Shown here: positions 54,695 through 54,770 of the stretch, piece by piece
Layout of the letters: every line of letters begins with the position of its first letter
Numbering within the stretch: the first letter of the stretch is position 1
Assembly (NCBI RefSeq): GCF_045037415.1
Contig: NZ_CP173438.1
Length of the DNA stretch: 64,000 bases
Direction: 5' to 3' (one strand)
Source: Escherichia coli
GTDB lineage: Bacteria; Pseudomonadota; Gammaproteobacteria; Enterobacterales; Enterobacteriaceae
Program-made: the position numbers and the translations under genes
The notes under the pieces: generated by a model
The model's database searches: none
Told to the model about the DNA's origin: nothing
What the model saw: the letters and a program-made list of their open reading frames with translations, nothing else

Positions 54695-54770
54695 ATTAGG
54701 TAATTCTAATTTTTCTTGACTTAGGTTTCTCTACGATCTAGTTTCCTTAGGAAAATCTAAGGAGTTCGAT
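54695..54770. promoter_or_regulatory. Immunity-region operator/promoter between dicA-like and dicC-like genes
   Basis: Palindromic sites ttaggtaattctaa and ccttaggaaaatctaagg (TTAG-N6-CTAA type) in the divergent intergenic region. Confidence 0.5.

Follow-up and report, generated by a model that had tools for sequence, protein, structure and literature searches.

Candidate operators of a P22/lambda-style switch in a DicA/DicC-type immunity region of an Escherichia coli prophage

The divergent dicA-dicC region of the Qin prophage in Escherichia coli K-12 contains a mapped DicA operator, Oc (5'-TTGTTAGTCATAACTAACAA; Yun et al.), of the form TTGTTAG-N6-CTAACAA, in which a single A-to-C change within CTAA abolishes DicA binding in vivo (PMC3441716). 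Oc overlaps the -10 element of the dicC promoter, whose +1 position was mapped by 5'RACE, and DicA bound at this site represses dicC and activates dicA; two further sites predicted from the Qin sequence, Om and Oa, showed no DicA binding when each was tested singly in vivo (PMC3441716). DicA has no cleavage site, and Qin is placed with Gifsy in an antirepressor-dependent subclass; in Qin the Rem protein relieves DicA repression of dicBp, and switching there runs through DicA, Rem and DicC (PMC10448788). Work on the P22 repressor has shown that its Val33 fits a methyl cleft of the TTAA element (PMC2995052) and that the central 4 bp of the operator, where A/T is preferred, are not contacted (PMC4267663). 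The PaaR2/YdaS/YdaT region of CP-933P in E. coli O157:H7 is a footprinted lambdoid switch with a YdaT-type CII analogue and operator sets at both OR and OL (PMC8630535); it differs from the locus described below in its repressor family and operator sequence (GTTTAGTAA repeats, four palindromes), and, unlike that locus, co-transcribes a toxin-antitoxin pair with the repressor.

Our analysis concerns a stretch of 64,000 nucleotides of the E. coli chromosome (the window), which carries a lambdoid prophage integrated beside tRNA-Ser. We consider it highly probable that the palindromes between the two divergent regulatory genes of this prophage are the operators of a P22/lambda-style bistable switch of the DicA/DicC (Qin-type) immunity family. 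The operator set is of a well-known kind and appears to represent a new, uncharacterised member of the DicA/P22-C2 immunity family; a literature search for the exact operator strings found no paper. The genes, predicted promoters and sites of the rightward region are as follows.

54287 to 54694, minus strand: DicA-like immunity repressor (open reading frame), 135 aa, with a P22-C2-type N-terminal helix-turn-helix and a short, non-peptidase C-terminal domain.
54771 to 54998, plus strand: DicC/Cro-like gene, 75 aa (Pfam P22_Cro, E=2.5e-13; 84% identical to K-12 DicC).
54982 to 55533, plus strand: second gene in the rightward operon, for a YdaT-family CII analogue (Pfam YdaT_toxin; PHROG 163 'CII-like transcriptional activator', E=7e-42).
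54716 to 54744, plus strand: PR-like promoter of the cro-like operon, with -35 TTGACT (54716-54721), a 17-bp spacer and -10 TAGTTT (54739-54744).
54703 to 54731, minus strand: PRM-like promoter of the repressor gene, with -10 TAGAAT (54708 to 54703) and a weak -35 GAGAAA (54731 to 54726) within O2.
54744 to 54763: O3, TCCTTAG-GAAAAT-CTAAGGA, a 20-bp dyad with perfect 7-bp arms; predicted strongest site and equivalent of Qin Oc and of OR1 in P22 and lambda.
54721 to 54734: O2, TTAGGTTTCTCTAC, a one-mismatch match (TTAG..CTAC) with 7 of 8 arm bases; equivalent of Qin Om and of OR2.
54696 to 54709: O1, TTAGGTAATTCTAA, an exact match to the pattern; equivalent of Qin Oa and of OR3.

The flanking genes had been called dicA-like and dicC-like in an earlier sequence-only reading, and database comparison agrees with both names: the repressor (Pfam HTH_3, E=4e-14) is 63% identical to K-12 DicA over residues 2-132, its full length, and the cro-like product is as close to DicC as listed above. 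Residues 2-69 of the repressor match the DNA-binding domain of P22 C2 (E=1e-21), with Val33 retained. Beyond the cro-like gene come genes for the YdaT-family CII analogue, for an O-like protein with a DnaT domain and for a protein like lambda P. The same reading had described TTAG-N6-CTAA palindromes and a likely third half-site in positions 54695-54770. These 76 bp coincide with the divergent intergenic region, which is bounded by the repressor start codon (CAT, 54692-54694) and by the ATG of the cro-like gene (54771). Both strings that it quoted are present. ttaggtaattctaa lies at 54696-54709 (O1), and ccttaggaaaatctaagg lies at 54745-54762, although the dyad to which it belongs extends one base further on each side to give O3, with its TTAG-N6-CTAA core at 54747-54760. 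The supposed half-site is in fact a full, slightly imperfect 14-bp site, O2.

Exact copies of TTAG-N6-CTAA occur three times in the 64-kb window against 0.54 expected, a count that 0 of 100 shuffles reached; the three copies (at 54159, 54696 and 54747) all flank the repressor gene and span 602 bp. Allowing one mismatch adds O2 at 54721 and a site at 54195 (GTAG..CTAA), and the remaining five one-mismatch matches in the window are scattered and no more numerous than expected by chance. Two of these sites, at 54159-54172 (exact) and 54195-54208 (one mismatch), lie on the other side of the repressor gene and are additional to those reported before. Because the motif was picked after the sequence had been seen, and because the operator region is rich in A+T (its GC content is 32%, that of the window 52%), we also ran a motif-agnostic test, in which the two AT-rich intergenic regions were shuffled 20000 times with dinucleotide composition preserved and any palindrome of a 4-mer around N6 was counted. 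In 64 of the 20000 shuffles OR had two or more copies of such a palindrome, and in only 3 of 20000 did OL have at least one copy as well. Short AT-rich palindromes are common, and the right arm of O3 overlaps the Shine-Dalgarno sequence AAGGAG of the cro-like gene, so the dyads might be thought to have arisen by chance in an AT-rich promoter, or to form an RNA hairpin that hides the ribosome-binding site. We regard this as very improbable, and as the least probable of the readings considered here, since the shuffle tests exclude chance and the motif is also present at OL, which has no ribosome-binding site. The hairpin form of the argument was rejected for O3 on a further ground, namely that the predicted PR +1 (~54751, placed by analogy with the 5'RACE-mapped Qin dicC start) falls inside the dyad and leaves its left arm outside the mRNA.

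The three dyads in OR sit on the predicted divergent promoters in the manner of a lambda/P22-type tripartite layout, with one over the PR -10, one over the PR -35 and PRM -35, and one over the PRM -10. O3 extends over the final base of the PR -10, the predicted +1 and the Shine-Dalgarno sequence. O2 lies on the PR -35 and spacer and has the weak PRM -35 within it, and O1, which holds the PRM -10, is separated by a single base from the start codon of the repressor gene. A generic promoter scanner found the leftward promoter PL and missed PR, whose -10 matches at only 3 of 6 positions, and PR was assigned by homology with Qin and P22. In about ten of 79 related loci this weak TAGTTT element is replaced by TGGTTT, which lacks the -11 A. 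At the PRM -10 position TAnnAT is kept across DicA-family loci. The repressor ATG follows the PRM -10 by 8 nt, from which we infer that the repressor mRNA, with a predicted start 0-2 nt ahead of the ATG, may be nearly leaderless and made from an activator-dependent promoter; the P22 RM transcript likewise begins 4 nt before the c2 ATG, and the analogous paaR2 mRNA is leaderless (PMC8630535).

This arrangement is the one seen in P22. Across P22 immC (BK000583) both OR and OL align position by position with the sites in the window, the TTGACT and GGTCAA -35 hexamers are identical in the two (the P22 PR promoter being annotated), and P22 OR3 is adjacent to the c2 ATG and has the PRM -10 at positions 10-15 of its 18-mer, as does O1. 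Both loci have three dyads between divergent promoters and an OL that mirrors OR, and the architecture expected of a repressor/cro switch, which the sequence-only reading had invoked, is found here as in P22 and Qin. The two loci differ in the core, which is TTAA-N6-TTAA in P22 and TTAG in the window, and in the recognition helix, SNVAISQ in P22 and AHVTISQ in the window. Val33 is kept in the window repressor and Asn32 of P22 C2 is replaced by His; this substitution may be linked to the change of core from TTAA to TTAG. The half-site consensus in the window is nYTTAGR, around an A/T-rich centre. In the five window sites the 4 bp at the centre (AAAA, TAAT, TTTC, ATAA and AAAA) are A/T throughout except for one C, which fits the indirect readout described for the P22 repressor (PMC4267663).

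Comparison with Qin leads to the same placement. Oc is the only mapped DicA operator in Qin, and O3 shares its core, its 7+6+7 geometry and its position over the -10 of the cro-side promoter. Read in the same orientation, the K-12 sequence runs TTGACT-17-TATCTT and then TGTTAG-TTATGA-CTAACA, so that a TTGACT-17-TAnnnT promoter layout is common to both; K-12 also has AGTTAG-CTAATG-CTAAAT beside the dicA ATG and ATTAG-CCATGA-CTAACA at dicBp. The repressors are both 135 aa long, and the gene order is shared, with ydfA-like, DicF and dicB on one side of the repressor and the divergent cro-like and ydaT-like genes on the other. The window contains the features of a Qin-type module, that is, a short DicA-like repressor, a divergent DicC, an Oc-type operator, a second operator set and Rem, and unlike Qin its prophage retains genes for replication, lysis and morphogenesis. 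The half-sites differ only at bases 2 and 3, which are CC in the window (TCCTTAG) and TG in Qin (TTGTTAG), and this difference tracks one in helix 2 of the repressor, LSQAALGKL in the window against HTQRSLAKA in Qin; together they imply that the immunity specificities are probably distinct.

The mapped behaviour of the Qin sites bears on how many of the window sites the repressor would use. As DicA bound Oc and neither Om nor Oa when each was presented alone in vivo (PMC3441716), O1 and O2 may bind repressor only cooperatively, or their main role may be as Cro sites. A stricter version of this argument, that only O3 is a genuine repressor operator and that O1 and O2 are sites for the DicC-like Cro or promoter elements that resemble the motif, would also accord with the fact that O3 alone combines perfect 7-bp arms with an AAAA centre, while one arm of O2 is defective. 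We think this version unlikely, though it deserves more weight than any other alternative. Cooperative binding escapes single-site assays; the homologous OR2 and OR3 of P22 are annotated as C2-repressor operators; and the arms of O1 and O2 are as well conserved as those of O3. Moreover, O2 is mirrored nearly base for base at OL2, with its 'defective' arm included, which points to a tuned weak site and not to decay. We therefore retain the reading in which all three dyads are repressor operators, with O3 expected to head the order of affinity. The features on the leftward side of the repressor gene, where this mirroring is seen, are listed here.

54159 to 54172: OL1, TTAGAATAATCTAA, an exact match, over the -10 and spacer of the leftward promoter.
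54195 to 54208: OL2, GTAGAAAAACCTAA, a one-mismatch match, 10 bp upstream of the PL -35.
54156 to 54185, minus strand: PL-like promoter (dicBp analogue) from the promoter scan, with -35 TTGACC, an 18-bp spacer and -10 TAAATT; predicted +1 at ~54149.
54221 to 54256, minus strand: terminator-like hairpin and U-run just past the repressor stop codon (inverted repeat; RNA fold -11.2 kcal/mol, z=-3.3).
53927 to 54079, minus strand: DUF1391 (ydfA-like) gene, first of the PL operon (Pfam DUF1391, E=1.5e-28; RefSeq annotation of an identical locus).
53185 to 53236, minus strand: PL-operon sRNA DicF (Rfam RF00039, 71.5 bits; gathering score 48).

The operon continues with dicB, which RefSeq annotates in an identical locus. 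OL1 aligns with P22 OL1 and with the Qin OL, and in relatives its arms are kept while its spacer changes (for example AATAAT, AATAGC and AATAAC). OL2, also conserved in relatives, is the reverse complement of O2 at 15 of 16 positions, spacer and imperfect arm included, so that the two form an inverted repeat. The GGTCAAG block of the PL -35 does not vary among the window, PPompW, Qin and P22. The window layout is thus one of a three-site OR and a two-site OL; only two OL sites were found in the window, where P22 is annotated with three and the literature has three sequence-predicted sites at Qin dicBp. The terminator-like hairpin would insulate the PL operon from read-through out of the repressor gene, and a hairpin of different sequence occupies the equivalent place after dicA in Qin.

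This flank of the repressor gene has two further features. The predicted PL leader, which runs from PL to the DUF1391 gene, contains a hyphenated dyad at 54130-54143, ACACCG-TG-CGGTGT, that is conserved in PPompW and Qin and recognisable at DicA-family loci of other genera; it could be a nut-like RNA element or the site of another protein. Directly 3' of the repressor stop codon (54270-54286) there is a homopolymer tract, A8G7 on the plus strand, whose length varies among near-identical loci (A9G7 in L004, A7G6 in PPompW) and which is probably prone to slippage.

The sequence-only reading had held that its interpretation would fail if the palindromes were not conserved in homologous immunity regions, and we found that they are: the arms are kept while spacers and inter-site DNA drift. 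A scan of viral contigs gave 80 loci that encode the repressor at 75-100% identity, and these, with three genomic loci that have the same helix-turn-helix, yielded 23 distinct OR sequences. Among the 23 variants, 3 of 24 arm columns are variable against 26 of 49 other positions (Fisher p=0.0009, a value to be taken as indicative only, because the sequences are related and such p-values overstate their independence). The right arm of O3, CTAAGG, is invariant, and the last base of its spacer (position 6) can be any of the four nucleotides with the arms unchanged; at O1 the arms are likewise invariant and two spacer columns alone vary. O2 is also conserved in these relatives.

Over greater distances, across Enterobacterales, the sites co-vary with the recognition helix of the adjacent repressor. 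A scan of one genome per species gave 32 loci, 23 of which (L084-L106) were analysed and combined with Qin, mEp460 and P22; the genera represented among the 23 include Pantoea, Erwinia, Citrobacter, Serratia, Rahnella, Rouxiella, Enterobacter, Arsenophonus and Fukatsuia. All 24 loci whose repressor has the helix (A/S)HV(S/T)(I/V)SQWE carry the TTAG-N6-CTAA core, exact or with a single mismatch, and its distance from the start codon of the repressor gene corresponds from locus to locus; most have one site at 4-5 nt and another at 53-55 nt from the start, and most also have a site at OL. The TTAG-N6-CTAA core was found in none of the 7 loci with other recognition helices, among which P22 (SNVAISQWE) uses TTAA and the mEp460 type (S(G/D)SSISLWE) uses TTGAG-N4-CTCAA. 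The outer flank of the half-site follows the start of helix 2 in a similar way, with 'SQAAL' accompanying (C/T)C, 'TQRxL' accompanying TG and 'TQ(R/K)EL' accompanying TT. This covariation is the best available evidence, drawn from sequence comparison, that the dyads are read by the adjacent repressor, and it suggests that the window repressor type represents a distinct specificity class.

The covariation also weighs against binding by some factor other than the neighbouring repressor or Cro, such as the YdaT-like CII analogue, H-NS/Cnu or Fis. The low GC content of the region speaks for such a factor, and Cnu/H-NS is known to interfere at the Qin dicA operator (PMC3441716), but nucleoid proteins do not need precise dyads, the known YdaT site TTGATT-N6-AATCAA has a different sequence (PMC9986795), and the motif changes with the recognition helix of the repressor across genera. 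We regard this alternative as very improbable. A search for the YdaT-type site with at most 2 mismatches gave 3 matches in the window against 3.1 expected, none of them in the prophage part.

In five of the viral contigs (L075, L077, L081, L082 and L083) the helix-turn-helix of the repressor and the operators are unchanged and the cro-like gene has been replaced by divergent alleles of the P22_Cro family, with recognition-helix variants that include RLASVAAW, RLSSIYAW, KAPSVCSW and APSSVSVW. The swapped gene lies downstream of the Shine-Dalgarno sequence, which places a mosaic junction right at the end of O3, and this suggests that Cro specificity rests on the shared TTAG core.

Our comparisons suggest a model for the operation of the switch in which the preferred reading, that the dyads serve the adjacent repressor and Cro-like protein, is carried through to both operons. 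A dimer of the 135-aa repressor would read each 18-20-bp dyad through its P22-C2-like helix-turn-helix. At O3 it would cover the PR -10 and +1 and at O2 the PR -35, and the two together would shut the operon of the cro-like, ydaT-like and replication genes; lying on the weak PRM -35, repressor at O2 would probably also stimulate its own synthesis. O1, over the PRM -10, is the likely target at which the Cro-like protein or excess repressor would switch the repressor gene off. Repressor bound at OL1 and OL2 (54159-54208) would close PL and keep the operon of the ydfA-like gene, DicF and dicB silent.

The way out of this state is likely to differ from that of lambda and P22. C2 of P22 (216 aa) has a RecA-dependent autocleavage module, whereas the C-terminal domain of the window repressor is short and without one; a Pfam search of the 135 residues returned helix-turn-helix domains only and no S24 peptidase domain, so that the RecA-stimulated autocleavage by which lambda and P22 switches undergo SOS induction is not a feature of this protein. 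For a repressor without a RecA-cleavable domain, the expected routes to derepression are those of Qin: an antirepressor, or switching that is spontaneous or driven by stress. A candidate for the former lies 6.5 kb downstream.

61184 to 61435, plus strand: rem homologue, 93% identical to K-12 Rem.

By analogy with Qin, this Rem homologue likely acts as the antirepressor that inactivates the non-cleavable repressor. With full-length genes, promoters, operators, OL and rem all in place, the immunity region appears intact at the level of sequence, as the sequence-only reading had supposed. LexA control of the switch or of rem is not supported by the sequence: CTGT-N8-ACAG occurs only twice in the window (19035 and 55836), a count within chance, and neither copy is near rem or the operators. 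The second copy, at 55836-55851 (CTGTTAATAAAAACAG), is a good LexA-box-like element with an AT-rich centre inside the O-like replication gene and may be an origin element or a coincidence. Just upstream of rem, at 60643-60967, are a sok antisense RNA (Rfam, 106.7 bits) and a hokD type I toxin module, and the hokD-rem order is the same as in Qin.

The leftward operon carries a further regulatory cassette. Within 52148-53115 on the minus strand a Rha/Ant-like regulator gene is preceded by two small RNAs, which fall in the 5' part of a mechanically called 284-aa open reading frame.

52763 to 52850: C4 antisense RNA (Rfam, 81.9 bits).
52875 to 52951: isrK (Rfam, 67.7 bits).

In the RefSeq annotation of an identical locus the cassette has a complete dicB directly downstream and a fragment of dicB directly upstream, and the whole looks like an antirepressor cassette of the P1/P7 immI or Gifsy isrK type that has entered dicB in the PL operon. 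A weak match to PHROG 340, the Rem family (E=2e-6), was obtained for the C-terminus of the protein encoded at 52148-52789, while pairwise BLASTP against Rem was not significant; the Rha/Ant-like protein is a possible second antirepressor for the non-cleavable repressor.

The immunity type is widespread. The 1.2-kb stretch 53900-55100 is 100% identical in many ST131-type and other complete genomes, and at least 80% of the query is covered in 748 of 5426 complete E. coli genomes, ST131-type strains included. The main use of the analysis is for annotation, as it marks OR, OL, PR, PRM and PL of an immunity type that controls the DicF and DicB cell-division inhibitors. The DicA-family series, with its constant TTAG core and co-varying flanks, also forms a small data set on specificity change in P22-type helix-turn-helix proteins, from which homo-immunity or hetero-immunity between co-resident prophages can be predicted. 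E. coli genomes contain up to 8 places that match the 1.2-kb immunity-region query, and since all classes share the TTAG-N6-CTAA core, partial cross-binding is conceivable. We put forward only tentatively the idea that the repressor/operator pair of the window is a separate specificity class of the DicA family and that co-resident DicA-type repressors could partly cross-bind each other's operators; if this were true, the dicF/dicB cell-division operons would be cross-regulated and prophage immunity would form a network in place of isolated switches. None of this overturns current understanding, and the specificity series and the possible cross-talk are its only mildly novel angle.

The surroundings of the prophage show some further features. 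In an otherwise identical locus RefSeq calls a frameshift at the C-terminus of the prophage integrase (47883-48933, minus strand). In the window the integrase open reading frame (47908-48933, 341 aa) still has the GHK..Y motif and catalytic-Tyr region in frame, so the defect lies at the extreme C-terminus and may leave the enzyme active. Upstream of the prophage, at ~33900-47800, a yersiniabactin High Pathogenicity Island (irp2, ybtA/P/Q/X/S, integrase) lies beside tRNA-Asn and is followed by mtfA and then tRNA-Ser. The window has four tRNA matches with identical scores (2575, 4984, 6805 and 46701), and prophage and island are integrated at tRNA sites that neighbour each other.
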